This document shows positions 8,737-62,937 of a DNA stretch of 64,000 bases, piece after piece. The position numbers and the translations under genes are program-made. Source of the DNA: an uncultured Acidobacteriaceae bacterium (GTDB lineage: Bacteria > Acidobacteriota > Terriglobia > Terriglobales > Acidobacteriaceae); contig CAWEYI010000028.1 in the NCBI GenBank assembly GCA_963813205.1, positions 1,038 to 65,037 of the forward strand, in the 5' to 3' direction. The notes beneath the pieces were generated by a model, which saw nothing but the letters and a program-made list of their open reading frames with translations, made no database searches and was not told where the DNA came from. Position 1 is the stretch's first letter. Each line of letters opens with the position of its first letter.

Positions 8737-8826
8737 TGGCGGAGAGGGTGGGATTTGAACCCACGATACCCGTTAAGGTATGTCCGCTTTCGAGGCGGAT
8801 CGTTTCAACCACTCACGCACCTCTCC
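8737..8826 (-). tRNA. tRNA-Ser (anticodon CGA), CCA encoded
   Basis: The reverse complement folds as a cloverleaf: acceptor GGAGAGG/CCTCTCC, anticodon stem CCGC/GCGG with loop CUCGAAA, long variable arm, T-arm GTGGGTTCAAATCCCAC, 3' GCCA. Confidence 0.9.
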
Positions 8827-47599: not shown

Positions 47600-50530
47600 T
47601 CAACGGCCGCCGCCAATCCCTTTCAACACCACGCTGCACCGCTCACACACCGTCGGATAATCCTTATCCTCGCCCACATGCGTCGAATAATTCCAACAGC
47701 GCTCGCACTTGGCTCCATCCGCTTTTTTCACTTCCACATGCACCCCGCCCGTGCCATTGCCCGAGCCTTGCGCCAGCGTAACCGCCGAAACTATAAATAA
47801 ATAGCGCAACTGATCTGCATGTCGCGACAACACAGAATAAACCGGATCGGCGGCTCCGATAATTACCTGCGCCTCCAACCCCGTACCGATCAACTTATTA
47901 TTGCGCGCCTCTTCCAGCGCCTTGAGCACTTCGTCGCGCACCGCGCGCAGCGTTGTCCAATCATCGCCGCCGCCGTCCTTCACCGAACTCTCACCCAGGA
48001 TTTCCTCTGCCGACGGAAATAATTCCAGATGCACACTTGGTTTACCCCCTTCGATCTTCGGCAAATAATCCCAAACTTCTTCCGAAGTAAAACTCATGAT
48101 CGGCGCCAGCAATCGCACCAGCGCTTCGCCAATCCTCCAGATCGCCGTCTGCGCGCTGCGCCGTGCCTGAGATTTCGGCGCAGAAATATAAAGCCGATCC
48201 TTGAGCACATCAAAATAAAACGCGCTCAAATCCACAATGCAAAAGTGATTCAGCCGGTGATAAATCCTGTGAAATGCGAACTCCTTGTAAGACGCCCGCA
48301 CCTCATCGGCAAACGCCAATGTCTGCCGCAGCATGTACTGATCCAGCCCTTCCATGCTCTCGAACCGAACCGCATCCGTCTCCGGATTAAAATCTCCCAG
48401 ATTGCCCAGCACATAACGGAACGTATTGCGAATCTTCCGATAATTTTCCGCGATGCGCAGCATCAGCTTCTCCGACCCCACCACATCCTCGCGAAAATCA
48501 ACCGACGCTACCCACAACCGCACCACTTCCGCGCCCAGCCGGTCCGAAATATCCACCGGATCAACGTCGTTCCCGCGCGACTTCGACATGGCCTGGCCCT
48601 TTTCATCCAGCGTCCATCCCGGCGTCACCACTTCTTTATACGGAGGCGTTCCCCGCGTCCCCATCCCGCACAGCAGTGACGACTGAAACCACCCGCGGTA
48701 TTGATCCCCACCTTCTAGATACAAATCAGAGGGCCAAGGATACGTTGGCTCGTCGGAAATCAACGCCAGATAGCTCGCGCCCGATTCCAGCCACACATCA
48801 AAAATGTCCGTCTCTTTCTCAAACTTGGTCGCGCCGCAATGCTGGCACTTTGCACTCGCCGGAAGAATCGAGTTCGATTCCGGCGTAAACCAAGCATCCG
48901 CTCCTGAGCGCGCAAACAACTCCACCACTTTCCGATTCACAGCCGGATCATTCAACGGCTTGCCGCAACTCTCGCAAAGAAACACGGCGATCGGAACGCC
49001 CCACACCCGCTGCCGCGAAATGCACCAATCCGGCCGCGTCGCGATCATGTTCGACATCCGCTCTTCGCCCCACGCCGGGTCCCATTTCACATACTTGATG
49101 TCTTCCAGCGTGCGTTTGCGCAACGTGTCTTCTTCCGACTTCCCGCCCGGCATCGGCGTCTCCATCGAAATAAACCACTGCTCCGTCGCCCGAAAAATTA
49201 TCGGATTATGACACCGCCAGCAATGCGGATAAGAATGCTCCGTCTTCTCCGTATGCAGCAGCGCCCCGCGCTTCTTCAGCAATTCGATGATCGGCTGGTT
49301 CGCATCCCAAACGCGCAGCCCGGCGTACTCCGCCAGTCCGTTACGCAGAATGCCTTTCTCGTCCACATTGCTGGTCGCGTCCAGTCCATACTTCACACCG
49401 GTAATAAAGTCTTCCGCGCCGTGCGAAGGCGCCGTATGCACCACTCCGGTCCCGGTATCCATGGTGACGTACTCCGCCAGCACGCCGAGAATCTTCCGAT
49501 CCAGAAATGGATGCTGAAAATTCAGCCGCTCCATCTTGCGTCCAGGAAAACGCGCAATCTCCCGCGCATCCGCCAGCCCGCACTTCTCCGCCACATCCTT
49601 CGCCAGCTTCGCCGCGACGATGAAAACTTCACTATCTGGGGTGCCCCACGTCTCGCTTCCTTTGCGAGACATGGGAACTTCTAATCCCACATACTCTTCA
49701 TCCGGATGAAACGCCACCGCCATCGACGCCGGCAGCGTCCACGGAGTAGTCGTCCAGATAATGGTCGAAACTTTTTTTCCCGCCAGCGCCGCATCAATCT
49801 TCCCCGGATCATCCAGCAGCGCGTACTTCACATAAACCGTCGGGCTGGTGTGATTCTCATACTCAACCTCGGCCTCGGCCAGCGCCGTCTCGTCATGCAT
49901 GCACCAGTAAACCGCGCGCAGCCCCTTGTAGACGAATCCATTCTCGTAAAACGAAAAGAAAGTCGACAGCACCACCGACTCATACTGCGGATTCATCGTC
50001 GCGTACGGACGATCAAATCTCCCAAAAACTCCAATCCGCTTGAATTGCTGCCGTTGCAAATCCAAAAACTTCTGCGCATACTTCCGGCATTCCGCGCGTA
50101 CGTCGAGCGGCCGCATCTGCAACTTCTTCCCGCCCAGCTCCTTATCCACCTTGATTTCAATCGGCAACCCATGGCAATCCCACCCTGGCACATACGGCGC
50201 ATCAAATCCCGCCATCGTCTTCGATTTGACGATGAAATCTTTCAAACACTTATTCAGCGCCGTCCCCATATGGATGGGCCCGCTGGTATAAGGCGGCCCA
50301 TCGTGCAGAATGTAAGTCGGCGATCCCTTGCGCGCCTCCCGGATGCGCTCGTAGATCCGCGCCTCCTCCCACCGGGCCAGCATTTTCGGCTCATTCTGCG
50401 GCAGATTGGCCTTCATCGGAAAGGCGGTTTTAGGCAGATTAATCGTGGATTTCAGTTCGAGCGGCACTCTTTCGGCTTCTCCCAATGCGTGAATCTCTTC
50501 ATTATAGGGAGCGTCGCCGCGAACGTCCAT
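47600..50530 (-). CDS. ileS: Isoleucine--tRNA ligase
   Basis: PYTSGPIHMGTALNK (HIGH), AMSKSRGN (KMSKS), C-terminal zinc fingers CERCW...CERC. Start set at ATG 50530 (MDVRGD...LPKTAFPMKANLPQNEP), because upstream codons run through a repeat. Confidence 0.92.
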   Translation of the reverse strand: MDVRGDAPYNEEIHALGEAERVPLELKSTINLPKTAFPMKANLPQNEPKMLARWEEARIYERIREARKGSPTYILHDGPPYTSGPIHMGTALNKCLKDFIVKSKTMAGFDAPYVPGWDCHGLPIEIKVDKELGGKKLQMRPLDVRAECRKYAQKFLDLQRQQFKRIGVFGRFDRPYATMNPQYESVVLSTFFSFYENGFVYKGLRAVYWCMHDETALAEAEVEYENHTSPTVYVKYALLDDPGKIDAALAGKKVSTIIWTTTPWTLPASMAVAFHPDEEYVGLEVPMSRKGSETWGTPDSEVFIVAAKLAKDVAEKCGLADAREIARFPGRKMERLNFQHPFLDRKILGVLAEYVTMDTGTGVVHTAPSHGAEDFITGVKYGLDATSNVDEKGILRNGLAEYAGLRVWDANQPIIELLKKRGALLHTEKTEHSYPHCWRCHNPIIFRATEQWFISMETPMPGGKSEEDTLRKRTLEDIKYVKWDPAWGEERMSNMIATRPDWCISRQRVWGVPIAVFLCESCGKPLNDPAVNRKVVELFARSGADAWFTPESNSILPASAKCQHCGATKFEKETDIFDVWLESGASYLALISDEPTYPWPSDLYLEGGDQYRGWFQSSLLCGMGTRGTPPYKEVVTPGWTLDEKGQAMSKSRGNDVDPVDISDRLGAEVVRLWVASVDFREDVVGSEKLMLRIAENYRKIRNTFRYVLGNLGDFNPETDAVRFESMEGLDQYMLRQTLAFADEVRASYKEFAFHRIYHRLNHFCIVDLSAFYFDVLKDRLYISAPKSQARRSAQTAIWRIGEALVRLLAPIMSFTSEEVWDYLPKIEGGKPSVHLELFPSAEEILGESSVKDGGGDDWTTLRAVRDEVLKALEEARNNKLIGTGLEAQVIIGAADPVYSVLSRHADQLRYLFIVSAVTLAQGSGNGTGGVHVEVKKADGAKCERCWNYSTHVGEDKDYPTVCERCSVVLKGIGGGR
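49638..49675 (-). repeat. REP-like hairpin element inside the ileS coding sequence (in frame)
   Basis: Coding strand CCCATGTCTCGC-AAAGGAA-GCGAGACGTGGG-GCACCCC, encoding PMSRKGSETWGTP. Confidence 0.7.
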
Positions 50531-50552
50531 GAACCCCCACTCCTGAAGCTTT

Positions 50553-50585
50553 ACCCCGTGCACCCCTGTGACCTCCGTGTTAAAG
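50553..50585. repeat. Family C repeat copy (partial), upstream of ileS
   Basis: CCCCGTGCACCCCTGTGACCTCCGTGTTAAAG. Confidence 0.45.
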
Positions 50586-50825
50586 ATTTTGATTTCCCTT
50601 TCCAGCACCCCCCGAAATACACTTCGTAAACTACCCAAAGAAGAGGTACAATTTTCCAAACAGGCAAATGGACGTTAACCTTTGCCCAGTGCGGTCGCTA
50701 AATTCCACAACGAGCCGTAGCCTTACAGGCAACTCGCTGGAAAGACTCTTCATCTGTGTTGAGCAGGGCGTCGGGCCGAGCGCAGTGCACTCACCGTCCG
50801 ACCTGGGAAAGCCGAATCGGGGAAC

Positions 50826-51821
50826 ATGTCATCTGTAGAAGTGAATCCGACACCAGCCGAAAAAGAGCCGGAGCTTCATCTCCTGCTCGCTCCCGACACC
50901 TTCGAGCCTCTGTACAAGTCCCTCTTCCGCGGCTTGGACGATTTCTTTTTCCCCAAGAAACTTCCGCCCCTCAAGCTGGAATCGAAGCCCATTCCGGTCA
51001 AGGATATCTGGGGTTTTTACAACTACAAAAAGAATGGCGTCCTCGGTTCCACCGCTGCTCACGTTGTAGTGCTCGCACTCATCATCGGCGGAACCATTTG
51101 GGCCCACCGCTGGGTCACTAAAGCCCAGGCCAAGCCGCAGACCGTCACCACAGCCCTGATCGATCCCGGCGATTACTCGCTAAAGCCCGCCAAAACCCAA
51201 GCCGGGGGCGGTGGAGGCGGTGGCGACCGCGACGTCCTCCAGGCTTCCCGAGGCAAGCTTCCCAAGTTCTCCATGCAGCAGATCACTCCGCCCACTGCGG
51301 TCATCCGAAATTTCAACCCCAAGCTCGCGGTTGAGCCAACGGTCATCGTTCCGCCTGAAATCAAAGTGGCAATGAATAACTTGCCAAACCTCGGCGACCC
51401 CAAATCCTCCGCCATCATCCCGTCGAATGGAACCGGCTACGGCTCTGGAATCGGCTCAGGCAGCGGCGGTGGCGTCGGCTCCGGCAACGGCCCAGGCGTA
51501 GGCCCCGGCGAGGGCGGTGGTATGGGCGGCGGCATTTTCCGTCCCGGCCGCGGAGTCACTCCACCGCGCCCCATCTATTCTCCCGATCCGGAATTTTCCG
51601 AAGAAGCCCGCAAAGCCAAGTACCAGGGCACGTGCACTCTGATGATCGTCGTCGATACCGACGGCAAGCCCACGAATCTCCGCGTCGTGAACTCCCTGGG
51701 CATGGGCCTCGACGAAAAGGCGCTCGAGACGGTCAAAACCTGGCGCTTCGAACCCGGCAAGAAAGACGGCCATCCCGTCAAAGTCGAAATGGCCGTCGAA
51801 GTCGATTTCCACCTGTACTGA
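50826..51821 (+). CDS. tonB: Energy transducer TonB
   Basis: N-terminal TM helix (VLGSTAAHVVVLALIIGG), Gly-rich linker, C-terminal PIYSPDPEFSEEARKAKYQGTCTLMIVVDTDGKP...VKTWRFEPG. Confidence 0.85.
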   Translation: MSSVEVNPTPAEKEPELHLLLAPDTFEPLYKSLFRGLDDFFFPKKLPPLKLESKPIPVKDIWGFYNYKKNGVLGSTAAHVVVLALIIGGTIWAHRWVTKAQAKPQTVTTALIDPGDYSLKPAKTQAGGGGGGGDRDVLQASRGKLPKFSMQQITPPTAVIRNFNPKLAVEPTVIVPPEIKVAMNNLPNLGDPKSSAIIPSNGTGYGSGIGSGSGGGVGSGNGPGVGPGEGGGMGGGIFRPGRGVTPPRPIYSPDPEFSEEARKAKYQGTCTLMIVVDTDGKPTNLRVVNSLGMGLDEKALETVKTWRFEPGKKDGHPVKVEMAVEVDFHLY

Positions 51822-52264: not shown

Positions 52265-53086
52265 CTACTCCTTCAAATCCACATGCACCACGTTTTCGAT
52301 AGCGCGCCCCAAAAATCGCTCCCCCAACCTTCGAAACTTTTCCACCGAATCCGTAGCAAAGAATTTAATCCGCGGAACCGCCCGCCGCTCCTCGCCCGAC
52401 GCTGAAGCCAAGAGCCCCTGCAGTCGTCCCGCCACCACCCGCGCCGTCGATTCCGCCGAATCCACAATGCTCACATGCTCCGGCGCCGCCCGCCGCAACA
52501 CTGTCTTGAGCAAAGGATAATGCGTGCACCCCAGCACCAGCGCATCCGCGTCATGAAATCCATCGGCAAACGCCTCTGACAAATAGATCCCAGCAACTTC
52601 TTCGGTCACGGGATGCTCCACCCACCCCTCCTCGACCAACGGCACCAGCAGAGGACATGCCTTCTCCCGCGCCTCAACCCCCCGCGCCTCCAGCGCCCGC
52701 TTGTAAGCATGGCTGCTCACCGTAGCTTCAGTTCCAACGACCACCACTTTTTTCTTCTTGCTCACCGCAGCCGCCGCCTCGGCCCCCGGTTCCACCACCC
52801 CGACAACGGGTACATGCGCCGCCGCAACGATTCGATCCAGCGCCAGCGCCGTCGCCGTGTTACAGGCAATCACCAAGACCTGCGCTCCGTGTCTCTCGAG
52901 AAAATGCGCCGCCTCTACCGCATACCGGGCCACCGTCTCCACCGATTTCGACCCATAAGGCAGCCTCGCCGTATCCCCAAAGTAGAGATATTCGGCGTTA
53001 GGAATTAGTTCAAGTAAAGCTTTAAGAACAGTCAGCCCGCCAAAGCCAGAGTCAAATACGCCGATAGTAGGACGCCGAATCGCCAT
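52265..53086 (-). CDS. murI: Glutamate racemase
   Basis: GVFDSGFGGLTV, IACNTA and LGCTHYPL (the two catalytic Cys contexts). Confidence 0.92.
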   Translation of the reverse strand: MAIRRPTIGVFDSGFGGLTVLKALLELIPNAEYLYFGDTARLPYGSKSVETVARYAVEAAHFLERHGAQVLVIACNTATALALDRIVAAAHVPVVGVVEPGAEAAAAVSKKKKVVVVGTEATVSSHAYKRALEARGVEAREKACPLLVPLVEEGWVEHPVTEEVAGIYLSEAFADGFHDADALVLGCTHYPLLKTVLRRAAPEHVSIVDSAESTARVVAGRLQGLLASASGEERRAVPRIKFFATDSVEKFRRLGERFLGRAIENVVHVDLKE

Positions 53087-53139: not shown

Positions 53140-53326
53140 ATTGTCATTCCGACCGGAGCCCGAGCGTCGGCGAGGGCGCAGTGGAGGAACCGCTGTTAGC
53201 CGGCTCGACCGAGTTGCTTGTATGAAGGCCGAAGAGAATTGCTCGCAGGAAGGCTCGCACAACCGTGGACGAGCGGCGCTTTAGCGCCGCGCAACTGCAA
53301 GAAAAATGCGGGGGCTTCAGCCCCCC
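53140..53326. repeat. Composite repeat copy 3 (A head plus B tail), overlaps the last codons of the ABC-DtxR ORF
   Basis: TTGTCATTCCGACCGGAGCCCGAGCGTCGGCGAGGGCGCAGTGGAGGAAC ... CACAACCGTGGACGAGCGGCGCTTTAGCGCCGCG ... GGGGCTTCAGCCCCC. Confidence 0.75.
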
Positions 53327-54600
53327 AGAGTTCTCGAACGCTCCCCGCGCACGGAACTCGTAGTCGCCGCAAACTCTGAACCCGCGCAACACCCCCCCGG
53401 CGGGATCGGCGCCCCATGCGGGCAAGTCCGCGGATGTCCCAAAAACGCGCAAATCTTATCAGTAGCCTCGGGCGACAAAATATGCTCAAACTTGCAAGCC
53501 TGCTGCTCAATTTCCGATTCGCTATCCATCGCCAGACTATCGGTAAACAGCCGCTCCGCCAATCGATGCCGTCGGATAATGCTTCCCGCCCGTTCACGCC
53601 CGCGCTCCGTGAGCTCCACAATCAAAGTTCCATCGCCCAGCGAAGCCGAAACAGGTTTCAACGCATCGTGGCAAGGATTCACAAAAGGCTTGTGTCCATG
53701 CGCCAGCGGAGGATGCGGAGCCGAAACCACCAGCCCCATCTGCATCATCTTCTCAATCGCCAGGCTCACCGGCAGCGCTCCGTGCACCTCCATGCGCTCC
53801 ACTTCTGCGATCTCGCCGTGCTCGCCCAGCACCCACAACTCCTCGAGCACTTCATCGAACTGCTCTTCATCGGCCATCGCAAATACTTCCTGCGATTCGA
53901 TCTTGCCGTGATGAAATTCAATGCGCCGATCGGCCAGCCGCGCCACTACGGGGTCATGCGTGACCATCACAATCGTGCGTCCTTGCTGATGAAACTCACG
54001 CAGTAGCCGCAGCACAATTTCTTCATTCACCGCATCCAGATTGCCTGTCGGCTCATCCGCCAGAATAATCTTCGGATCATTAATCAAAGCCCGCGCAATG
54101 CAAACCCTCTGCTGCTCACCACCCGAAAGTTGCGACGGCAAGTGATGCGCCCGATCGCCCAGTCCCACCCGGGCCAGCGCCTCACTCGCTTCTTTCTCAT
54201 CCGTCATGCTGTGAAAATACTGCGCCAGCATCACGTTCTCCACCGCCGTGAGAAAAGGAATCAGATGAAACTGCTGAAAAATAAATCCAATCTTCTCCGA
54301 CCGGACGCGATTCAGTTCGGCAGCAGAAATCCCCGCCACGTTCTGCCCATCCAGCCAGATCTCCCCCGAGGTCGGCCGATCCAGGCATCCAATCAAATTC
54401 ACCAGCGTCGATTTCCCCGACCCCGACGGCCCCATAATCGAAAGCCATTCTCCCTGCGCCACATGCAGTGAAATATGATCCAGCGCACGAATTGCATCAC
54501 TGGGGGTGCCCCACTTCTCGCTCCTTTTGCGAGAAGTGGGATCATGCGCAGCCGAAGCCTTACCTGGGTAGAGCTTGGTCACGTCTTTGATCTGTATCAT
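53317..54600 (-). CDS. ABC transporter ATP-binding protein (MacB/LolD-like) fused to a DtxR/MntR-type metalloregulator module
   Basis: Residues 1-240: Walker [10 protein letters not shown], signature LSGGEQQR, Walker [13 protein letters not shown]-loop VTHD. From residue about 242: [22 protein letters not shown]... then [27 protein letters not shown]...[36 protein letters not shown], the DtxR-family dimerisation and metal-binding signature. Confidence 0.8.
54502..54540 (-). repeat. REP-like hairpin element inside the ABC ATPase coding sequence (in frame)
   Basis: Coding strand CCCACTTCTCGC-AAAAGGA-GCGAGAAGTGGG-GCACCCCC (perfect 12-bp stem), encoding [13 protein letters not shown] between beta-strands 1 and 2 of the NBD. 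Confidence 0.7.
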
Positions 54601-54601
54601 T

Positions 54602-55741
54602 TCAATCTCCCCGCAAAATAACCGCCGGCTGCACTCGCCGCAACATGGAAATCGGCAGGATCGCCGCCAGCAAAGTGACCGCTATGCTACCAGCCAGAAT
54701 AAAAGGTAAAACACTAAATCGTGGAGCCACCGATGCATGGAAATTTACCCTTCCAATCCATGCCGCAATCCCGATGCCCAAAACAAATCCGATCACCGCC
54801 CCGGTCGCGCCCAGCGCCGCCGCCTCTGCGGCAAAGAATCCATTTAGCATCCCATCCGATGCGCCTAGCGCCTTCAAAATAGCAAAGTCTCGCCGGCGGT
54901 CAAATACCCATCCCATCAACGTTGAGAGTACGCACAGCGCCGCAGTCAAAATAATCAGCGCCGCTGTTACCAGCAGCGTCGCCCGCGTCTTGCCCAGCAC
55001 CCGCGCTTCGCCCTCCATAATCTGCCGCACCGGACGCACCTCCGCCGCCGGAATCGCACTTTGCAGTTGCTGCAGAATCGCGCCGATCTCCTCCGGCGAT
55101 CCGCTCGCCGCAACTTCAATCGTCGAAGGTTGCACTCCAGTCCAGGCAACGAAATCCGCGAGTGAAACATACACCCGGCTGTCTTCCGCCGCGCCTGTCT
55201 CCACCTTGCCCGCAGGTGTCAGCAGAATCTTATGTCCCTGAAACTTAAGATCGAAATTTTGATTCTTCGGCGACACCACCGCGAGCGCCCGAACTCCCAC
55301 CAGTGCCTGCTGCGGACCCGAAGGCCACTGGCTCACCGACCACCAATGATCCAACTGCCGCACCCGCCCAAAGTCCGTTCCCGCCACCACCACCGATTCT
55401 CCGGCATCGGTTCGCGCCACCACCAGCCCGAACGGAGCCACCACCCCACGGTTCCCGAGAACCGATTCCACCTGCGCCAAAGCGTCAGCGGGAAGGGAAC
55501 CGCCGTCCTTTCCTACTACAACAATATTCGCTCCATAGTTGCGGAATTCCCGCCGCAACTTGGCCTGCACATCGACATAAAGATTCAACACGGCAGTTGC
55601 TACCGCAGCCGCTACCACCATGGCAAACAGCGCTGAGAGCGCCCGTCCCCGCCGCAGCACCGCCGCCCGCACCAGCATACGCATCAACATCGACGTATGC
55701 GGAGATCCCTTCCGCCTCGACGCTACTTCCCGCGCATTCAC
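54602..55741 (-). CDS. ABC transporter permease, FtsX/MacB-like
   Basis: N-terminal TM, large periplasmic domain, C-terminal 3-TM FtsX module (DFAILKALGASDG...). GTGA overlap with the upstream stop. Alternative start at ATG 55690. Confidence 0.8.
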   Translation of the reverse strand: MNAREVASRRKGSPHTSMLMRMLVRAAVLRRGRALSALFAMVVAAAVATAVLNLYVDVQAKLRREFRNYGANIVVVGKDGGSLPADALAQVESVLGNRGVVAPFGLVVARTDAGESVVVAGTDFGRVRQLDHWWSVSQWPSGPQQALVGVRALAVVSPKNQNFDLKFQGHKILLTPAGKVETGAAEDSRVYVSLADFVAWTGVQPSTIEVAASGSPEEIGAILQQLQSAIPAAEVRPVRQIMEGEARVLGKTRATLLVTAALIILTAALCVLSTLMGWVFDRRRDFAILKALGASDGMLNGFFAAEAAALGATGAVIGFVLGIGIAAWIGRVNFHASVAPRFSVLPFILAGSIAVTLLAAILPISMLRRVQPAVILRGD

Positions 55742-57002
55742 AACTCACCCCGCAGCGCAAACACCGGATCCATTCCCACCGCCTTGCGAATCGCCGCCGC
55801 ACTCCCCGCAAATGTGACGATCACCGCGATCACCAGAATTACCGGCAACAGCACCGGCGCAATCGTAATCTCTGAACCAAAAATCGATCTTCCAATCTCA
55901 TGCGCCAGCATTCCGCCAGCCGCAAATCCCACCGCTCCCCCAAGCAACGCCAGCAGTGTCGCCTCGGCAAAAAAGATCGACGCAACCGCAAACCTTCCCG
56001 CGCCCAGAGCCTTCATCAAACCCACTTCTGACCGCCGCTCAAAAATCGCCGTAGCCATCGCCGCCGAAACCGCCAGCGCCGAAGCAAACAGCGCAGCCAG
56101 CGTCACTAAAAAGATGAGACCCTCGATGCGCGTCAGCACCGCGCCCTCATTCTGCGCAACTTGCCGAATCTGCTCCGCATGCGAATTCGGAATCGCCTCC
56201 TGCAACTGAAACGCAATCGACTGCGGATAAGGCGAGCAGTACCACCGGTCATAAATCGCGCCCGATAAACTCTTGGGATCACGTCGTGCCAACGCATCTT
56301 CCGGCTTCGTCAGCGCGCTCACATAAACGCGCTTCACCGCGCCCGGCCTTCCCAGAATTTCCTGCGCCAGCGCAATCGACCCCACCACTTGATCGTCCTC
56401 GCTGCCTCCAGTGGAAAGAATTCCACTCACCCTTAACCGCCGACCGTCTAGCGTAATCTCATCTCCCGCTCGCTCCGAAAGCCGCGCCGCCAGCCGCTCT
56501 CCCAGCAACACATCGCGGGACGAATCCTCCGGCCACGCCCCGGAAACTTTCCACCAGGGGTCAGTCGACCGCACCCCAGTCGTAAATTCTTCTTTGCCAA
56601 AAGAAATCTGCTTGGCGAAGTAAGTGCCAAGCAGCGTAACGTCCTCGGTTTTTCCATCGCGCTCGAGCCAGCCTGCACCGGCAACATCGGAGCAAATCCC
56701 GTAATGTTGTTGTGCCAGAACGTGCCTTTGATTTTGGGCAGATCGGCTTCGTTCAGAAAAGCGCCATCGCTCGGCGGCTTCAAATTCACTCCGCCAATTT
56801 CCACATCCAGCGTATCTTCCTGCGGGGTTACAAGTATGTTCGCGCCAATGGTGCGCAGCTCGTGATTCATCTTGTCGCCAATATCGGTTGCGACTCCAAT
56901 CATCGCCGTCGCTACCGTTACCCCCAGCGTGATCGCCGCGCCCGCCAGCAATTTGCGCCGCTTCTGGCGCCGGAACGATTCGTAGACGAGCCGTACGAAC
57001 AT
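55738..57002 (-). pseudogene. ABC transporter permease, FtsX/MacB-like, frameshift near 56670
   Basis: N-terminus MFVRLVYESFRRQKRRKLLAGAAITLGV...NITGFAPMLPV is in ORF 56448..57002. The continuation (A)GWLERDGKTEDVTLLGTYFAK... to the FtsX C-terminus EVGLMKALGAGR... is in the frame of ORF 55738..58257. The span length is 3n+2. Confidence 0.8.
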
Positions 57003-57005
57003 TCC

Positions 57006-58257
57006 TTATTGTTTCTCGAACACGCGGCTGCCCGCCGCAATGTCCGCCTCCTGAATCACCACCGAATCCGCCGTCTCCGTCGCCTTCAACGGAATCGGAT
57101 TGCATCCGCCCGTCGTCCCCACCGATTGCGCCATTGATCGGCGCGGCGCAATTCTTGCAAACAATCCGGTTGCCGGATTTGTAAAAGCCCACCGCCCCGC
57201 AAATCTGGCAAGCATCAAACACCGTCGCAATTTTCCCGTCCGGCTTCTGATACAGCCAGAAACGCACCTCAACCCCATTCTCCTTCGCCTGATAGCGATG
57301 CAAATCTCCATCGGAAACCTTCGCCAACGGAATCGTCACTTTGCCATTCACAAAGCTGACTTCCGTCGCTGGCGACAGCGCGCTCTGGCTCTTGGCATAA
57401 ACAAACTCCGCCGTCAGCATCGCGATAAACATAAAAGAGAACACATACACCGACCCCATCCACAACCGCTCCCGCCGCGCCGACCAAGCTGCCTTGCGTC
57501 TCTCCGCCGGAGAAACCGCATCCGGCAAGGGCTGCCGCCGCTTGGCGTCAAACAAAATCATCAATGCCGCAAGCGCCAGAATCGTGACAAAGAAGAAAAG
57601 ATCATTCCGCACGATCGGCCCAATGATCGACATCTCCGCCTTCGAAGAGGGAAGCACTCCGCTCTCCGAAAGTTCGTGCAACCCAGCAATCACCAACTGC
57701 ACCGCAACCAGGATCAGAATCGCGCTCGTAACCCGGAAAAACTTTTGCAGATTAATCCGCACGCTGCCCTTCACAAACATCACGCCAAAAGCAATCGCGC
57801 ATCCCACGCCCAACAGCGTTCCCAGAAAACTCATCAGCTCGGAGGAATTCAGCGTCACTGCCGAGAGAATAAGCACCGTCTCCGCGCCCTCGCGCAGCAC
57901 CATCAGAAACACAAAAAAGAAAAGCCCAATCCAAGCGTCATTCCCCGCCAGCAGTCCAACTTTGCCCTCAATCTGCCCCTTCAGTTTCCGCCCCGTCTTC
58001 ATCATGAAAATAACCATGGTGACGACGAAGAAGGCGGCCACCAGCATCACCCAGCCCTCAAAAACGTCTTCGTTCAAATTCAGCCGCGAGAGCAGAATGG
58101 CAACCCCGATGCTGCTCACAAAAGCCGCCACCAGCGCGGCATACACCGCCTTGCGCAAATCGTTGCGCCCAATCTTCGCCAGATAGGCCAGAGTGATACC
58201 CACGATCAGCGCAGCCTCAACCCCCTCGCGCAGCGTAATAATGAATGCCTGAAGCAT
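57006..58257 (-). pseudogene. FTR1-family iron permease fused to a DUF2318 Cys-rich membrane domain, frameshift near 57132
   Basis: Two REXXE motifs (REGVEAAL, REGAETVL). After a further TM helix comes CQICGAVGFYKSGNRIVCKNCAAPIN. The end ...AQSVGTTGGCNPIPLKATETADSVVIQEADIAAGSRVFEKQ* is in the frame of ORF 57006..57311. Confidence 0.75.
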
Positions 58258-58277
58258 CTAGAAATCGCCCACCATTT

Positions 58278-58292
58278 TGAAAATGAATTTCA
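58278..58292. promoter_or_regulatory. Fur-box-like 7-1-7 inverted repeat TGAAAAT-G-AATTTCA
   Basis: 21-35 nt upstream of the FTR1-DUF2318 start, in an AT-rich patch with reiterated TTCAA units. 6/7 arm symmetry. Resembles TGATAAT-N-ATTATCA. Confidence 0.3.
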
Positions 58293-58465
58293 ATTTCAAC
58301 TTCAAGGATATGCCGTCTGCGCCGGAGGCGTCAATCCGTTCCGTCACAAGCCAGCGTGATCGGCATCACACGGCGAAAATATGGATTAAACGGAGTTTTC
58401 GGAGACGTCAATCAGGCGGGTGACCCATCCTTCTCTGTATTTGTTCTTTCCCGCTCCTGAACAGT

Positions 58466-58512
58466 GGGTGCCCCGTCCTTGCGTTGTTTGCAAGGGCGGG
58501 TACGATGCTGCC
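58466..58512 (+). repeat. REP (RAYT-associated) copy
   Basis: GGGTGCCCCGTCCTTGCG-TTGTTT-GCAAGGGCGGGTACGATGCTGCC directly upstream of RAYT copy 1. Confidence 0.8.
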
Positions 58513-58530
58513 TGTACCATGTTGCTTGTC

Positions 58531-58911
58531 ATGCCTAGCGGCCTGCATCGCACCTACGGCGCTCATCACCTGCACTTTGTCACTTGTTCCTGCTACCAGC
58601 GCTTGCCGTTTTTCAACACCGCCCGCAGCCGCGACCGCTTCCTCTCGGTTCTGGAACAGACCCGCCAGCGTTATCGGTTTGTGGCCGTCGGCTACGTCGT
58701 TATGCCAGAGCACATCCATCTTCTTCTGAGTGAGCCCGAGGTGGGAAATCCCTCTACGGTGATGCAAGTGTTGAAGCAGCGCACCGCCTGGGCCTTACTG
58801 CCGAAGAGCAAGCGGAAGGACCCGCGCCAGCGGAATCTGTTTGCCAGGGAGCCGCAACGCAGGGCCTTCTGGCAGGCACGCTTTTACGACCTTAACGTGT
58901 GGACCAGGTAG
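58531..58911 (+). pseudogene. REP-associated tyrosine transposase (RAYT, IS200/Y1-type), 3'-truncated copy
   Basis: MPSGLHRTYGAHHLHFVTCSCYQRLPFF...VMPEHIHLLL (HUH) ...FWQARFYDLNVWTR*. Lacks the segment with the catalytic Tyr that is present in copy 2. Confidence 0.75.
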
Positions 58912-58915
58912 TGGG

Positions 58916-59098
58916 CTACTTTGAATTTTCTAGGGCTCGTCGGACTTTCGCCTCAAGTTGATGCCAGTGTTTTTGGTGGTCTTTCCGGGGAGCGATTCCG
59001 AGACGCATTCTGCAATATCCCAAGGCCCATTGCAGCTCGTTGCTATTTTTATGTTCAATCGCATCTTCGATGCGTTTTAGTTCCTTGAACCGCGTCAT
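58916..59098 (-). CDS. Small hypothetical protein (60 aa)
   Basis: Internal ATG 59098 of ORF 58916..59200: MTRFKELKRIEDAIEHKNSNELQWALGYCRMRL... The upstream part of that ORF is REP-derived. Confidence 0.35.
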   Translation of the reverse strand: MTRFKELKRIEDAIEHKNSNELQWALGYCRMRLGIAPRKDHQKHWHQLEAKVRRALENSK

Positions 59099-59189
59099 GC
59101 TACCGCTCTTTCCGCCCTCCGCTGCTCGTAGGCTTCCCAGAGGGCAACTAAATCCTGTACGCTCCACAGCCGATCCGTGACGCCAGGAC

Positions 59190-59226
59190 GGGTGGCCCAC
59201 CCTTGCGCACGTTGCAAGCGGGCGGG
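59190..59226 (+). repeat. REP variant
   Basis: GGGTGGCCCACCCTTGCGCACGTTGCAAGCGGGCGGG. Confidence 0.6.
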
Positions 59227-59273
59227 CGGCTCGCCCTTTCTAATCTGTTTTTTTCTTCCCATTTCGAGACTGT

Positions 59274-59320
59274 GGGTGCCCCGTCCTTGCGTTTTATGCA
59301 AGGGCGGGTACGATGCTGCC
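59274..59320 (+). repeat. REP copy, 5' flank of the intact RAYT
   Basis: GGGTGCCCCGTCCTTGCG-TTTTAT-GCAAGGGCGGGTACGATGCTGCC. Confidence 0.8.
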
Positions 59321-59336
59321 AATACCATGGGCTGTT

Positions 59337-59891
59337 ATGCCCAGCGGTCTGCATCGCACATACGGGGCGCACCACCTGCACTTTATCACTTGTTCCTGCT
59401 ATCGGCGATTGCCTCTGCTGAATTCTGCACGAGCTCGGGACCGCCTCCTATCGATTCTTGAGCAGACTCGCCAACGCTACCGCTTCGTCGTGGTCGGGTA
59501 TGTGGTGATGCCGGAGCATATTCATCTGCTGATGACCGAGCCGGAGGTGGGCAACCCTTCCACAGTCATGCAAGTGCTCAAGCAGCGCACGGCGCGGGCG
59601 TTGTTGCCGAAGAGAAAGCGGCGCGATCCGCGGCAACTAACTCTGTTCGCGGACGGAGCCGGCCATCGGGCTTTCTGGCAGGCACGCTTCTACGACTTCA
59701 ACGTTTGGACAACGAAGAAGCGAGTGGAAAAGCTGAGGTACATGCATCGCAATCCCGTGAAACGGCGACTGGTGGAGTCGCCCGAGCAATGGCGATGGAG
59801 CAGTTACCGGTTCTATTTGCTAGGAGAGGCCGGAGCGGTGCGGGTGAACGTGGGGTGGTCGGAGATCTCGTTTCGGAATCGAGTTGCTTGA
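59337..59891 (+). CDS. REP-associated tyrosine transposase (RAYT), apparently intact
   Basis: 184 aa from ATG 59337. HUH motif MPEHIHLLM. C-terminal helix with Tyr: VEKLRYMHRNPVKRRLV. Flanked by inverted REPs. Confidence 0.85.
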   Translation: MPSGLHRTYGAHHLHFITCSCYRRLPLLNSARARDRLLSILEQTRQRYRFVVVGYVVMPEHIHLLMTEPEVGNPSTVMQVLKQRTARALLPKRKRRDPRQLTLFADGAGHRAFWQARFYDFNVWTTKKRVEKLRYMHRNPVKRRLVESPEQWRWSSYRFYLLGEAGAVRVNVGWSEISFRNRVA

Positions 59892-59921
59892 AGGTGTCTC
59901 GGGACAAAACCTCAAGATTTC

Positions 59922-59968
59922 GGCAGCATCGTACCCGCCCTTGCAAAAAACGCAAGGACGGGGCACCC
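59922..59968 (-). repeat. REP copy in inverted orientation, 3' flank of the intact RAYT
   Basis: GGCAGCATCGTACCCGCCCTTGC-AAAAAA-CGCAAGGACGGGGCACCC is the reverse complement of the 59274-59320 type. Confidence 0.8.
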
Positions 59969-60002
59969 CGCTGTATTGCTGGTGTTAGCGAAATCAAAGG
60001 CT

Positions 60003-60376
60003 GGGCCACCCGCCCGCTCGGCGATGATCGCATCCAGCCCGCGCGTCACTCTGCGGCTGGCGAAACTGGTATCCACTTCCAGCGCCAGACACTCTCGCAT
60101 AAAGGCGTCGACCACGCTCAGCACCCGGATCGTTCGCCCGCACTCCACCGCGTCGTGCACGAAATCCAACGCCCACTCCTCGTTCGCCGAAGTCCGCGCC
60201 AGCAGCGGCTTTCCCTCGCGTACGCAATGCTTCCGTTTCTTCCGTCGGATCATCAACCCCGCCTCGCGATACACCCGATGTACGCGCTTGTGATTCACTT
60301 TCTCTCCCGTGCGCCCCAGCAATACATGCAGTCGCCGATACCCGAAGCGCGGCTTCTTCCGTGCCAAGTCCACCAA
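60003..60376 (-). pseudogene. IS3-family transposase (OrfB/integrase core) internal fragment
   Basis: KPRFGYRRLHVLLGRTGEKVNHKRVHRVYREAGLMIRRKKRKH...NEEWALDFVHDAVECGRTIRVLSVVDAFMRECLALEVDTSF. Truncated at both ends by REP sequences. Confidence 0.75.
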
Positions 60377-60394
60377 CCGTTACTGCACACGTCC

Positions 60395-60438
60395 GTCGTA
60401 CCCGCCCTTCGTACAGAACGCGAAGGACAGGGCACCCC
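60395..60438 (-). repeat. REP variant (inverted orientation)
   Basis: GTCGTACCCGCCCTTCG-TACAGAA-CGCGAAGGACAGGGCACCC. Confidence 0.65.
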
Positions 60439-60461
60439 ATATATCGCAAACGCCAACGAGT

Positions 60462-60575
60462 TCAAAAGCCTAGGCCACCCGCCAGGTTGTTTTCCGTATC
60501 GTAAACGTACTGCGTCTGGTTGTTGGCCGGATCGATGATCTGCGTCAGCTCGCCCAGACTGATGTACTGGGATCT
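60462..60575 (-). pseudogene. Rhs/YD-repeat protein fragment
   Basis: ...LGELTQIIDPANNQTQYVYDTENNL matches the YD-repeat consensus (G.L..i.dp.g..t.Y.YD..nrL). Isolated, with no start and no core. Confidence 0.45.
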
Positions 60576-60577
60576 GC

Positions 60578-60868
60578 TCAGCGACTGAGCCGTCGGATCC
60601 CCCGGATAACACTTCGAAACAGAAGTGCAATTGCTATGTACAGCAAACAGTTGATCGCGACCGAAGCTATAGTCGTCATGATTCCGGGTACGGTACTGCA
60701 CCACCCTCCCGTCAGCATGACAGACGATGGCCACAACACAACCCGCAGGTCAGTGCTACCAACGTTCATAAGGCGCCACACGCCAAATCTGCAAAGAAGG
60801 GCCAGCACTGCTCCTGACACAATCAATCCCAAAGCGCCGCCAACCGCTGCCGTTTGCCGCACAGTCAT
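60578..60868 (-). CDS. Hypothetical 3-TM membrane protein
   Basis: Internal ATG 60868 of ORF 60578..61069: MTVRQTAAVGGALGLIVSGAVLALL...TIASVAINCLLYIAIALLF. The upstream part of that ORF is REP-derived. Confidence 0.35.
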   Translation of the reverse strand: MTVRQTAAVGGALGLIVSGAVLALLCRFGVWRLMNVGSTDLRVVLWPSSVMLTGGWCSTVPGIMTTIASVAINCLLYIAIALLFRSVIRGIRRLSR

Positions 60869-60952
60869 CGAATACAACCTCCAGCCTAACGATCTACCAG
60901 GCGGGTGGCTCGCCCTTTCTAATCTGTTTTTTTCTTCCCATTTCGAGACTGT

Positions 60953-60999
60953 GGGTGCCCCGTCCTTGCGTTTTATGCAAGGGCGGGTACGATGCTGCC
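60953..60999 (+). repeat. REP copy upstream of RAYT copy 3
   Basis: Identical to 59274-59320. Part of a 330-bp duplication (59221-59549 vs 60900-61229). Confidence 0.8.
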
Positions 61000-61015
61000 A
61001 ATACCATGGGCTGTT

Positions 61016-61229
61016 ATGCCCAGCGGTCTGCATCGCACATACGGGGGCGCACCACCTGCACTTTATCACTTGTTCCTGCTATCGGCGATTGCCTCTGCTG
61101 AATTCTGCACGAGCTCGGGACCGCCTCCTATCGATTCTTGAGCAGACTCGCCAACGCTACCGCTTCGTCGTGGTCGGGTATGTGGTGATGTCGGAGCATA
61201 TTCATCTGCTGATGACCGAGCCGGAGGTG
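61016..61229 (+). pseudogene. RAYT copy 3: frameshifted (extra G near 61045) and truncated after the HUH motif
   Basis: Near-identical to 59337-59549. Similarity ends abruptly after CCGGAGGTG at 61229, 15 nt before the IS inverted repeat. Confidence 0.75.
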
Positions 61230-61244
61230 AGGAATCTGGGGACA

Positions 61245-62937
61245 GGAAGCTGTGAAGAAATTGTTTTTTCGTGCAACCGGGACCGACACCACTTACCTGA
61301 GGTGCTGCGGTCTTCCCACATCACCATCGACACACTTTCCGGTGCCCGTTGAAGGATTCTATGCTGGCTGTACTTGCAGTGTCCGCTTTAGGCCGAACCA
61401 TCTCGTCAGGTTGTAACTTAGGCAAGCCCAAGTCGCTTCCATGGCTACTTTCACGCGGCTTCGGCAGCGAAACTGCCGCAGACCACAGCGCTCTTTAATC
61501 CAGGCGTGCGGGAACTCGGCGATCTGCGAGCGTCGCGCGTAGATTTGTTTTGCTTCCTCGGTTGCCATTTTCTGTTTAAACGCAATCGTCGCCGATGGCT
61601 CTTGCAGGCGCGTGATCGAGCGCCGCCACTCCGGGCGCGCCGGTTGCGGCGCGCATTTATCGCGCAGCGGGCAGTGGGGGCATGCCTTCTTCGGTGCGCG
61701 GTAAACGTGGGTACGGACCCCGTGGTCACGATTCAGCAGCGCATGGTGGGTGAGCGTTTGTCCGGCCGGACAGGTAAACCTGTCCTGCGCGGCATCGTAA
61801 GGAAACGCGCTGGCCAGGAACTCGGCGTGCCGCCCGTGCGCATCGCGTTCCCCAGGCCGCCAACTATCCTGCCAAGACCCGTAGAAGTCCACTCCCTGCT
61901 CGGCGGCCGCCCGCACCGAGGCGTGATTGGTGTAGTCGCCATCGGCCACGATCTGTTTGGGCTTGCGTGCCAGCGTGGTTGCGCAGCGTTCCAGCGCCGG
62001 CTTCATCTGCCGGTAGTCGATGGCATCGGTGGTCGCCTCGACGTTCACCACGATTCCGTGTTGCGTGTCCGTAAGCAGTTGCACGTTGTAGCTGGGGACG
62101 GTGCCACCTTCGCCGTTGCGCATTACGTGCGCCTCGGGGTCGCTGCTGGAGGCGCGCGCCACGAAGCCTTTGCGATCGTGTTTCTTCTCCTGCTGCAGGC
62201 GCTCGACCTCGCGCACCGCCGCTTCCAGCCGACTGACTCGTTGCCGTGCGGCACGTCGTTGCGCCGCTACCCGCCGACTCGCGCTCTTCTCTTCTTCCTC
62301 TGCCTGCGCGTTCAGCGCACGCACCTGCTCGCGCGCCAACTCCAGGTGCGCCGCCAGCTTCTCTTTGCGCCGGAAGCTGTTGCCGCCCGCGTTCGCCTTG
62401 ATCTTGGTTCCGTCCAGCGTCACCCGCTCCAGCGTGATCAGCCCCTCGGCGCTCATCATGCCCAGCACCTGCACAAACAGATCGTCCAGCGCCGCTTTAT
62501 GATCGGAACGAAAGCCGGACAGCGTCCGGTGGCTGATCGCCTGCAACCCGCATAGCCATTGGCAGCCCGGCTCGTACTCGCACTGCCGCGCCAACTCGCG
62601 CGCCGAACTCAGGCCACGGCTGTACGCGTAAATCCACAAGCTGATCAACAGCTGCGGGGCGGTGTGCTCCCGCCCCGCGCGCCCTTCCACCGCCTCGATC
62701 TGCGCGTGATACAGGCCCAGGTCCAGACGGCCGATCAGCTGCCAGATCAGACGCGCGCTATGATCTTCGTCGATCAGCTGTTCGACGTCGATGCTGCGCA
62801 GCACAAGCTGCTGTCGATTGATGGAGGCAAGTCGCGGTTCAGCCGGCACGCCGTGGTCGCTCACATCCGCAGTCTACCCACGCTGGCTAATTTCGCAATG
62901 ACATTGTTGGATCGAGCGACATTTCTTCACAGCTTCC
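61245..62937 (-). mobile_element. IS1182-family (IS5-like) insertion sequence, apparently complete
   Basis: Perfect 17-bp terminal inverted repeats GGAAGCTGTGAAGAAAT (61245-61261, and the reverse complement at 62921-62937) bracket a single 501-aa transposase ORF. Confidence 0.8.
61359..62864 (-). CDS. IS1182-family DDE transposase
   Basis: N-terminal DUF772-like region (IDEDHSARLIWQLI...LLISLWIYAYSRGLSSARELAR), coiled-coil middle, DDE region (VTLDGTKIKANA, IVADGDYTN, ...EATWACLSYNLTRW). Confidence 0.85.
   Translation of the reverse strand: MSDHGVPAEPRLASINRQQLVLRSIDVEQLIDEDHSARLIWQLIGRLDLGLYHAQIEAVEGRAGREHTAPQLLISLWIYAYSRGLSSARELARQCEYEPGCQWLCGLQAISHRTLSGFRSDHKAALDDLFVQVLGMMSAEGLITLERVTLDGTKIKANAGGNSFRRKEKLAAHLELAREQVRALNAQAEEEEKSASRRVAAQRRAARQRVSRLEAAVREVERLQQEKKHDRKGFVARASSSDPEAHVMRNGEGGTVPSYNVQLLTDTQHGIVVNVEATTDAIDYRQMKPALERCATTLARKPKQIVADGDYTNHASVRAAAEQGVDFYGSWQDSWRPGERDAHGRHAEFLASAFPYDAAQDRFTCPAGQTLTHHALLNRDHGVRTHVYRAPKKACPHCPLRDKCAPQPARPEWRRSITRLQEPSATIAFKQKMATEEAKQIYARRSQIAEFPHAWIKERCGLRQFRCRSRVKVAMEATWACLSYNLTRWFGLKRTLQVQPA

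Follow-up and report, generated by a model that had tools for sequence, protein, structure and literature searches.

A FetD-type ABC ATPase of Acidobacteriota with a conserved C-terminal DtxR-like module: a candidate in-cis iron sensor

The stretch of DNA analysed here (the window; 64,000 nucleotides from an uncultured soil bacterium of the Acidobacteriaceae, contig CAWEYI010000028.1 of assembly GCA_963813205.1) contains on its minus strand a four-gene operon, the last gene of which encodes an ATP-binding cassette (ABC) ATPase that continues in frame into a module related to the DtxR family of metal-dependent repressors. A first-pass annotation, made from the letters alone, had described a single uninterrupted open reading frame (ORF) of 427 amino acids (aa) at 53317-54600, with no strand given. 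The frame is indeed unbroken from its ATG start and is read from the minus strand; the Met at nucleotide (nt) 53877, from which the annotation read the repressor-like part, is Met242. The protein and its gene are divided as follows.

53317-54600, minus strand: whole ORF, FetD-type ABC ATPase plus DtxR-like module, 427 aa (ATG start, uninterrupted frame)
53893-54600, minus strand: nucleotide-binding domain (NBD), residues 1-236 (ABC_tran, catalytic motifs, match to an Escherichia coli plasmid ATPase)
53886-53891, minus strand: Shine-Dalgarno-like AGGAAG within the ORF, 8 nt 5′ of codon 242 (synonymous constraint)
53611-53877, minus strand: predicted DtxR domain-1-like winged helix, residues 242-330 (predicted fold; PF01325 13 bits)
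53626-53718, minus strand: His/Cys-rich wing insertion of about 30 aa, residues 295-325 (clade-specific)
53401-53610, minus strand: DtxR domain 2 (metal-binding/dimerisation), residues 331-400 (Fe_dep_repr_C 93 bits)
53386-53424, minus strand: CPHGxPIPxGxCC motif with C393, H395, C404 and C405 (conserved in fusions and relatives)

Comparison across genomes indicates that the fusion of ATPase and DtxR-like module is genuine and conserved, and not a sequencing artefact. With the full protein as query, at least 120 clusters (at 90% identity) of full-length homologues of 410-447 aa were found that carry both Pfam domains, among them proteins of Candidatus (Ca.) Sulfotelmatobacter and of other Terriglobia metagenome-assembled genomes (MAGs), and the C-terminal half used as a query returned many proteins that run uninterrupted across the NBD/DtxR junction. 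When one genome per species was scanned with the DtxR-like C-terminal module as query, relatives of the module were found to be encoded in at least 550 species. Frame and spacing were checked in the best 80 of these species (71-95% identity; all but two labelled Acidobacteriota). The Walker A motif and a conserved DtxR motif share an open frame at a constant spacing of 286 residues in 78 of the 80, and the stop codon or indel that the first-pass annotation had considered at the junction is absent from the same 78; of the two exceptions, one is ended by a contig edge and in the second the open frame is shorter. The second half cannot depend on codon 242 as a start, since a Leu codon (CTG, CTC, CTT or TTG) stands there in 9 of 81 sequences, ATG being found in the other 72. 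More distant forms of the fusion are present in Ca. Acidoferrum (401 aa, locus L081 9001-10206, about 53% identity overall, with the four-gene operon retained), Ca. Solibacter (409 aa) and Ca. Polarisedimenticolia (369 aa). Measured as the majority fraction, conservation of the DtxR-like module is 0.82-0.93 against 0.91 for the NBD and 0.25 for the 22-residue tail, a pattern that points to purifying selection on the module. Copies with 87-88% identity to the gene of Acidobacteriota also occur in two MAGs (L014, L026) that bear the labels Ca. Dormiibacterota and Ca. Aquilonibacter; mis-binning is the likely explanation, and otherwise recent transfer.

The N-terminal half is a canonical NBD, as the first-pass annotation had it. 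ABC_tran matches residues 40-185 (E = 2e-37, 129 bits), and the frame contains a Walker A motif (GPSGSGKS, residues 57-64), a Q-loop (FQQ), the signature LSGGEQQR (158-165), a Walker B motif (ILADEPT), a D-loop (GNLD) and an H-loop (VTHD). These catalytic motifs are invariant across 64 homologues, and residues 12-35 form a variable low-complexity insertion. The best NCBIfam matches are MacB and LolD, neither of which reaches its equivalog cut-off. A tblastn search with the DUF2318 part of the operon's first gene product led to a fetP-linked cluster (fetP/DUF2318/permease/ATPase) on E. coli plasmids; the whole FTR1::DUF2318 protein, used as a query against plasmids, gave mostly EfeU matches. 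The ATPase of plasmid pSCU-488-1 (231 aa) aligns to the NBD without gaps over 202 aa at 60% identity and 77% positives (E = 2e-90), and its C-terminus falls where the DtxR-like extension starts. Because the N-terminal half shares 60% identity with a fetP-linked ATPase that ends at the start of the extension, it is taken to be an orthologue of FetD, and synteny and similarity together identify it as a FetD-type ATPase. The ABC part is not itself the iron importer that the first-pass annotation had supposed; it belongs to a MacB/FtsX-type (type VII) system that accompanies an FTR1 permease.

The assignment of the C-terminal half to the DtxR superfamily draws on domain 2, on predicted fold and on the conserved ligands described below. 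The DtxR-type metal-binding and dimerisation signature reported in the first-pass annotation is clear: Fe_dep_repr_C (PF02742) matches residues 331-400 with E = 9e-27 and 93 bits, where the cut-off is 27, and in sequence comparison the domain matches IdeR structures with E = 1e-15. That annotation had also called the module complete, and here its description holds in part. Fe_dep_repress (PF01325), the family's model for the N-terminal DNA-binding domain, is unmatched: its 13 bits (E = 0.1) fall short of the cut-off of 26, also when the C-terminal half is searched alone, and solved structures (IdeR, DtxR, SloR, ScaR and others) align by sequence only to residues ~328-401. An AlphaFold2 (AF2) model of residues 237-427, built from a diverse alignment of 85 sequences, has a predicted local distance difference test score (pLDDT) of 87 and a predicted template modelling (pTM) score of 0.82, and orders its elements as α1, a short α2, α3, a β-wing and three helices. 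Foldseek matched this model to two-domain IdeR/DtxR chains with probability 1.0 and about 30% identity, at template modelling (TM) scores of 0.73-0.79 normalised to targets of 137-147 residues. Since these chains have both domains, DtxR domains 1 and 2 both appear to be present, and residues 242-330 are predicted, from the modelled structure alone, to adopt the winged-helix fold of domain 1. The third, SH3/FeoA-like domain is absent: FeoA has no match in the ORF, and just 22 variable residues lie beyond the CC motif. MntR and other two-domain members of the DtxR family likewise lack this domain.

Only about 5-8 residues link the NBD to α1, the acidic helix with which the winged helix opens. 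Of the winged-helix residues, D249, L252, E253, W256 and E260 are invariant in an 11-sequence alignment spanning the clades. Alignments of the fusions and their homologues show no variation at C369, E372, H373, E349 or E253 and hardly any at H345; position 250 alternates between Glu and His, and position 365 is mostly Glu. In the alignment to IdeR/DtxR structures, H345, E349, C369, E372 and H373 are the equivalents of DtxR H79, E83, C102, E105 and H106, and positions 250 and 365 those of DtxR M10 and H98. E253 stands at the position of DtxR R13, which in MntR is the manganese ligand E11. With the canonical DtxR-site ligands conserved, the module is, judging from sequence, ligand-competent. A second conserved set, Cys4His2 (C384, H389, C393, H395, C404 and C405, in the context ICxFLGHPxxCPHGxPIPxGxCC), does not vary among the fusions and reaches at least 90% conservation across 85 diverse relatives; the motif was not found in the solved DtxR/IdeR sequences compared. 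The wing insertion holds H296, H301, H303, C310 and H311, all invariant in the Terriglobales clade; it is absent from the Ca. Acidoferrum and Polarisedimenticolia clades and has low pLDDT in the model. In the Ca. Acidoferrum clade an extra CP....G.CC motif lies within the linker between NBD and α1. Such lineage-specific His/Cys motifs suggest additional metal sites.

DNA binding by the winged-helix part is doubtful, because this part is strongly acidic and its wing contains the 30-aa His/Cys insertion. Its 89 residues (242-330) include 4 Lys and Arg against 16 Asp and Glu, for a net charge of -12, and the helix equivalent to the recognition helix has a single basic residue in the model. Domain 1 of canonical DtxR, IdeR and MntR contains 9-11 Lys and Arg. 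A separate signal lies at the junction. For Glu238, whose codon forms part of AGGAAG, 76 of 77 genomes use GAA, compared with fractions of 0.20-0.89 at 20 other conserved Glu columns, and AGGAAG is kept also in genomes with Leu at codon 242; no Met is present at the junction in the other three clades. AGGAAG could mark an internal start that yields a free DtxR-like protein of 186 aa, or a translational pause site.

The ATPase-DtxR gene is the last of an operon that reads FTR1::DUF2318, a MacB_PCD/FtsX permease and an FtsX permease before it, an order that is intact in relatives and in the second (Ca. Acidoferrum) clade and that the E. coli plasmid cluster shares. Its remaining genes and control elements are listed here.

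58305-58334, minus strand: sigma-70-like promoter TTGACG-18-TATCCT (consensus match; the count of such matches is not above the shuffled expectation)
58277-58299, no strand: near-palindrome TTGAAATTGAAATTCATTTTCAA, 23 base pairs, a Fur-box-like operator (14/19 to the Fur 19-mer consensus)
57006-58257, minus strand: FTR1 permease fused to an FtrD-like/DUF2318 part (FetM::FetA-like; FTR1 125 bits, FtrD-like 65 bits), frameshifted near 57132
55738-57002, minus strand: FtsX/MacB-type permease A (FetB-like; MacB_PCD and FtsX), frameshifted near 56669
54602-55741, minus strand: FtsX-type permease B (FetC-like; FtsX 64.6 bits), its stop 1 nt before the ATPase ATG
53310-53325, minus strand: terminator-like GC hairpin GGGGGCTGAAGCCCCC with a T-run behind it, overlapping the ATPase stop codon

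The near-palindrome is unique in the window, encloses the 58278-58292 box named in the first-pass annotation, and has the -10 element of the promoter-like sequence just upstream of it. Most related genomes have it conserved upstream of FTR1, and at 46 of 68 loci the box has at most 5 mismatches to the Fur 19-mer within flanking sequence that has diverged. Its layout, in hexamers or as two overlapping 7-1-7 repeats, is that of a Fur box, and it looks unlike a DtxR/IdeR operator. A scan with Rfam gave no RNA element near the operon, the sole match being a tRNA at 8740-8826.

Compared with three relatives (L003, L006 and L009), the window has one nt more near 57132 and one nt fewer near 56669. 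The relatives encode FTR1::DUF2318 (416 aa) and permease A (421-422 aa) as separate intact genes in one frame, while 55738-58257 of the window's minus strand reads as a spurious chimeric ORF of 839 aa with about 154 out-of-frame codons in its middle. The two proteins appear as one because the compensating +1 and -1 shifts put the end and stop codon of the first and the start of the second out of frame. This points either to decay of the operon in this genome or to indels introduced by the assembly; the ATPase-DtxR gene is unaffected. Broken operon genes are also seen on a public ENA contig (L085, 1658-6549), where each operon gene is split into at least two called genes, and in that case frameshift errors generate spurious "standalone" DtxR-like database proteins.

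The operon has clear counterparts among fet systems. For C. jejuni FetD (CJJ81176_1654 / Cj1663) and the Fls/Flp systems of E. coli, Salmonella and Yersinia, the ATPase follows two FtsX permeases downstream of FTR1 and DUF2318 and a Fur box, as it does here, and the C. jejuni order fetM-(fetP)-fetA-fetB-fetC-fetD (in the fetMP-fetABCDEF cluster) is the acidobacterial gene order. Each of fetA-D is required for low-iron growth of C. jejuni, the role of the ABC part being unknown (PMC6083913, PMC10783030). FetD homologues are about 230 aa long and lack a C-terminal extension, whereas the ATPase in the window has 427 aa with its DtxR-like module. Also unlike the fet clusters, the acidobacterial operon has FTR1 fused to DUF2318 and lacks genes in cis for the periplasmic iron-binding protein P19/FetP and for the FetE/F thioredoxins (or an FMN protein), none being found between promoter and terminator in the window or among the called genes of the Ca. 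Acidoferrum locus; such genes could be encoded elsewhere.

Extra domains placed straight after the NBD, two per transporter, are familiar from MetN (C2/NIL), from ModC, MalK and FbpC (TOBE) and from ZnuC (a zinc-sensing domain), and the extension described here is placed in the same way. Its fold is unrelated, Pfam giving no match to the NIL or TOBE regulatory domains in the ORF, and what has been transplanted is a whole repressor core that appears to include the DNA-binding domain. The host differs as well, being a type VII (MacB-like) system and no classical importer. With free DtxR, IdeR and MntR (PDB 7B1Y, 2IT0, 1FX7, 2DTR) the module has in common domain 2, the predicted two-domain fold and the five ligand equivalents. 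It differs from them in being fused, in its acidic, sub-threshold winged helix, in the wing insertion, in the missing SH3 domain and in the extra Cys4His2 set, and from DtxR also in the replacement of Met10 by Glu and of His98 mostly by Glu. The Mop/TOBE-type domain recurs in the regulatory domain of ModC. A molybdate-binding domain of this type is part of the ModE repressor (PMC11672702). These two cases would show a sensor domain common to a repressor and its transporter.

The nearest free proteins form a DtxR-like subfamily marked by the CPHG...CC motif. They resemble the fused module in the α1 motif D/E-E-x-L-E-x-L-W, in domain 2 and in Cys4His2, at 44-48% identity across the part of the module that aligns, and differ from it in being free proteins of 210-260 aa, with an SH3/FeoA domain in 53 of 85 where the fused module has none. 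Among the 85 nearest representatives of the subfamily at the 50% level, not one matches PF01325 at E ≤ 0.001. The gene of the nearest free-standing relative, P0515 (255 aa, with Fe_dep_repr_C and FeoA), lies 17 nt downstream of feoB (L084 76-2764).

The best-supported reading, one that the first-pass annotation had already raised in the form of direct gating by the metal-sensing fold and to which we give about even chances, is that the DtxR-like module serves as an in-cis iron sensor that feedback-inhibits a FetBCD-type ATPase. The FetD-type subunit of a MacB/FtsX system would work with the FTR1::DUF2318 permease encoded in the same Fur-box-preceded four-gene operon, and in Acidobacteriota this ATPase would have gained DtxR-family domains 1 and 2 permanently at its C-terminus. 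Two copies of the ATPase would bring two modules together beneath the NBDs, paired as a DtxR-type dimer. Rising cytoplasmic Fe2+ (possibly Mn2+) would then bind at a site made of E250 and E253 of α1 and of C369, E372 and H373 of domain 2. In DtxR, α1 supplies a metal ligand and shifts upon activation. Metal binding may lock α1 against domain 2 as it does in DtxR, and the change could reach the NBDs because no more than about 5-8 residues separate α1 from the last NBD strand. The locked helix would restrain the ATP-driven closing and opening of the NBDs, a trans-inhibition like that of MetN, ModC and ZnuC. Ligands that bind the ATPase's C-terminal domain inhibit transport in MetNI and ModBC (PMC10710835), and in ZnuC a zinc-sensing domain likewise blocks the transport cycle (preprint PMC12236471). 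The outcome would be a fast post-translational shut-off of iron uptake atop slower transcriptional repression of the Fur type. That the modules dimerise, which metal they bind, and that binding is coupled to the ATPase and inhibits it are all inferred.

Several points weigh against this reading. ABC systems of the MacB type do not act as importers, and the role or substrate of FetBCD is unknown (PMC10783030). The metal could activate the ATPase and not inhibit it, and metal specificity is not readable from the ligand set, because the Met10 equivalent is Glu or His and the His98 equivalent mostly Glu. The full-length AF2 model, built on a 64-sequence multiple alignment, is poor (pLDDT 55, pTM 0.41) and offers no usable geometry between NBD and DtxR-like module, and with its upstream genes frameshifted in the window the system may be inactive in this genome.

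Four other explanations were weighed. That adjacent genes for an ATPase and a DtxR-like regulator were joined by a sequencing or assembly error has a vanishingly small probability. The window does hold two indels that break neighbouring genes, and among database entries there is a 182-aa "standalone" product that starts with MADEEQ (P0029), but the junction is unbroken in four divergent clades and, among 80 independent genomes of different species, in 78. The 182-aa product, at first sight a natural split form, was rejected since it comes from a 60-kb contig on which every operon gene is fragmented by frameshifts; all operon genes being in pieces there, indel errors in the assembly are indicated. 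The remaining short matches to the C-terminal half are contig-end fragments that begin within the NBD and not standalone genes. It is also quite improbable that the module binds DNA and represses its own or other iron genes, whether as part of a bifunctional, membrane-tethered protein (the alternative offered in the first-pass annotation) or as the free 186-aa protein made from codon 242. Such a role would fit a winged-helix fold kept under purifying selection and the conserved palindromic operator upstream of the operon, and an internal start would fit the constrained AGGAAG 8 nt before a codon that is ATG in 72 of 81 sequences. The winged helix, however, carries a net charge of -12 with 4 Lys and Arg in 89 residues, one basic residue in its recognition-helix equivalent and a 30-aa insertion in its wing, and scores just 13 bits against PF01325. 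The operator is of the Fur-box type (14/19) and looks unlike a DtxR/IdeR one, and a tethered repressor is weakened by this operator together with the acidic winged helix. An internal start is further at odds with CTC, CTT or CTG at codon 242 in 8 genomes and with the lack of a junction Met in three other clades.

A role without control of the ATPase, in which the module would be a permanent clamp for NBD dimerisation or a metallochaperone-like acceptor of iron from FTR1, is unlikely, though it has points in its favour: domain 2 of DtxR is a dimerisation domain by its Pfam description, and the many conserved His and Cys residues (in Cys4His2, the wing insertion and the Acidoferrum linker motif) go beyond the needs of a simple sensor. 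FetD homologues of 231 aa outside Acidobacteriota nevertheless function without a clamp (PMC10783030), and the ligands of the canonical regulatory site, needless for a pure clamp, are strictly conserved. Four invariant cysteines (C384, C393, C404 and C405) might instead coordinate an Fe-S cluster or pair up in disulfides, in which case the ATPase would respond to Fe-S status or oxidative stress and not to free Fe2+. The invariance of Cys4His2 in all fusions, its conservation (at least 90%) in the wider subfamily and its absence from solved DtxR/IdeR structures speak for such a sensor, but the motif may be a mere structural Zn site and the canonical DtxR site is retained too, and this explanation is judged highly improbable.

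Outside the operon, a cluster of mobile elements (58440-62864) lies directly upstream. It includes a region of IS200-like/REP-associated Y1 transposases in three copies or part-copies (ORFs 58420-58911 and 59313-59891, and a third recognised by DNA repeat only), accompanied by REP-like palindromes of 47-82 nt (GGGTGCCCCGTCCTTGCG...), as well as a truncated IS3-type integrase (59912-60376; HTH_21 and rve) and a DDE transposase (61359-62864). On the other side, 1.5 kb past the operon, a TonB-family protein with a long Gly/Pro-rich linker is encoded on the plus strand (50826-51821; TonB_C 77 bits), and glutamate racemase (52265-53086) and isoleucyl-tRNA synthetase (47600-50659) are encoded in the same neighbourhood.

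C-terminal sensor domains on ABC ATPases are already known; the version described here, with a DtxR sensor derived from a transcription factor, is not known from earlier work, and the fusion is fixed across several lineages of Acidobacteriota (Terriglobia, Ca. Polarisedimenticolia). The first-pass annotation was aware of no characterisation of this architecture, and searches of the literature on fusions of ABC and DtxR parts, on FTR1/DtxR in Acidobacteriota and on an action of DtxR-FeoA on FeoB brought up no relevant description and no paper describing an ABC-DtxR fusion. A wider conjecture, which we regard as distinctly unlikely, is that the whole Cys-rich CPHG...CC branch of DtxR-like proteins, whose members carry annotations as DtxR/MntR transcription factors, may consist of post-translational iron or Fe-S sensors and not of repressors, those carrying FeoA acting on FeoB and those fused to the ABC ATPase on FetBCD. 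If so, the acidobacterial fusion would be a "Rosetta stone" for this branch and a first handle on the FetBCD ATPase. If the module gates the ATPase, it would represent a new and fast route of iron homeostasis, in which post-translational control is layered on Fur, and a clear exaptation of a repressor core as an allosteric domain. A built-in cytoplasmic iron sensor would then also imply that FetBCD ATPase activity is rate-controlling for iron entry, a hint at the function of the FetBCD/Fls systems of Campylobacter, where FTR1/P19-dependent iron uptake requires them, and of E. coli, Salmonella and Yersinia.

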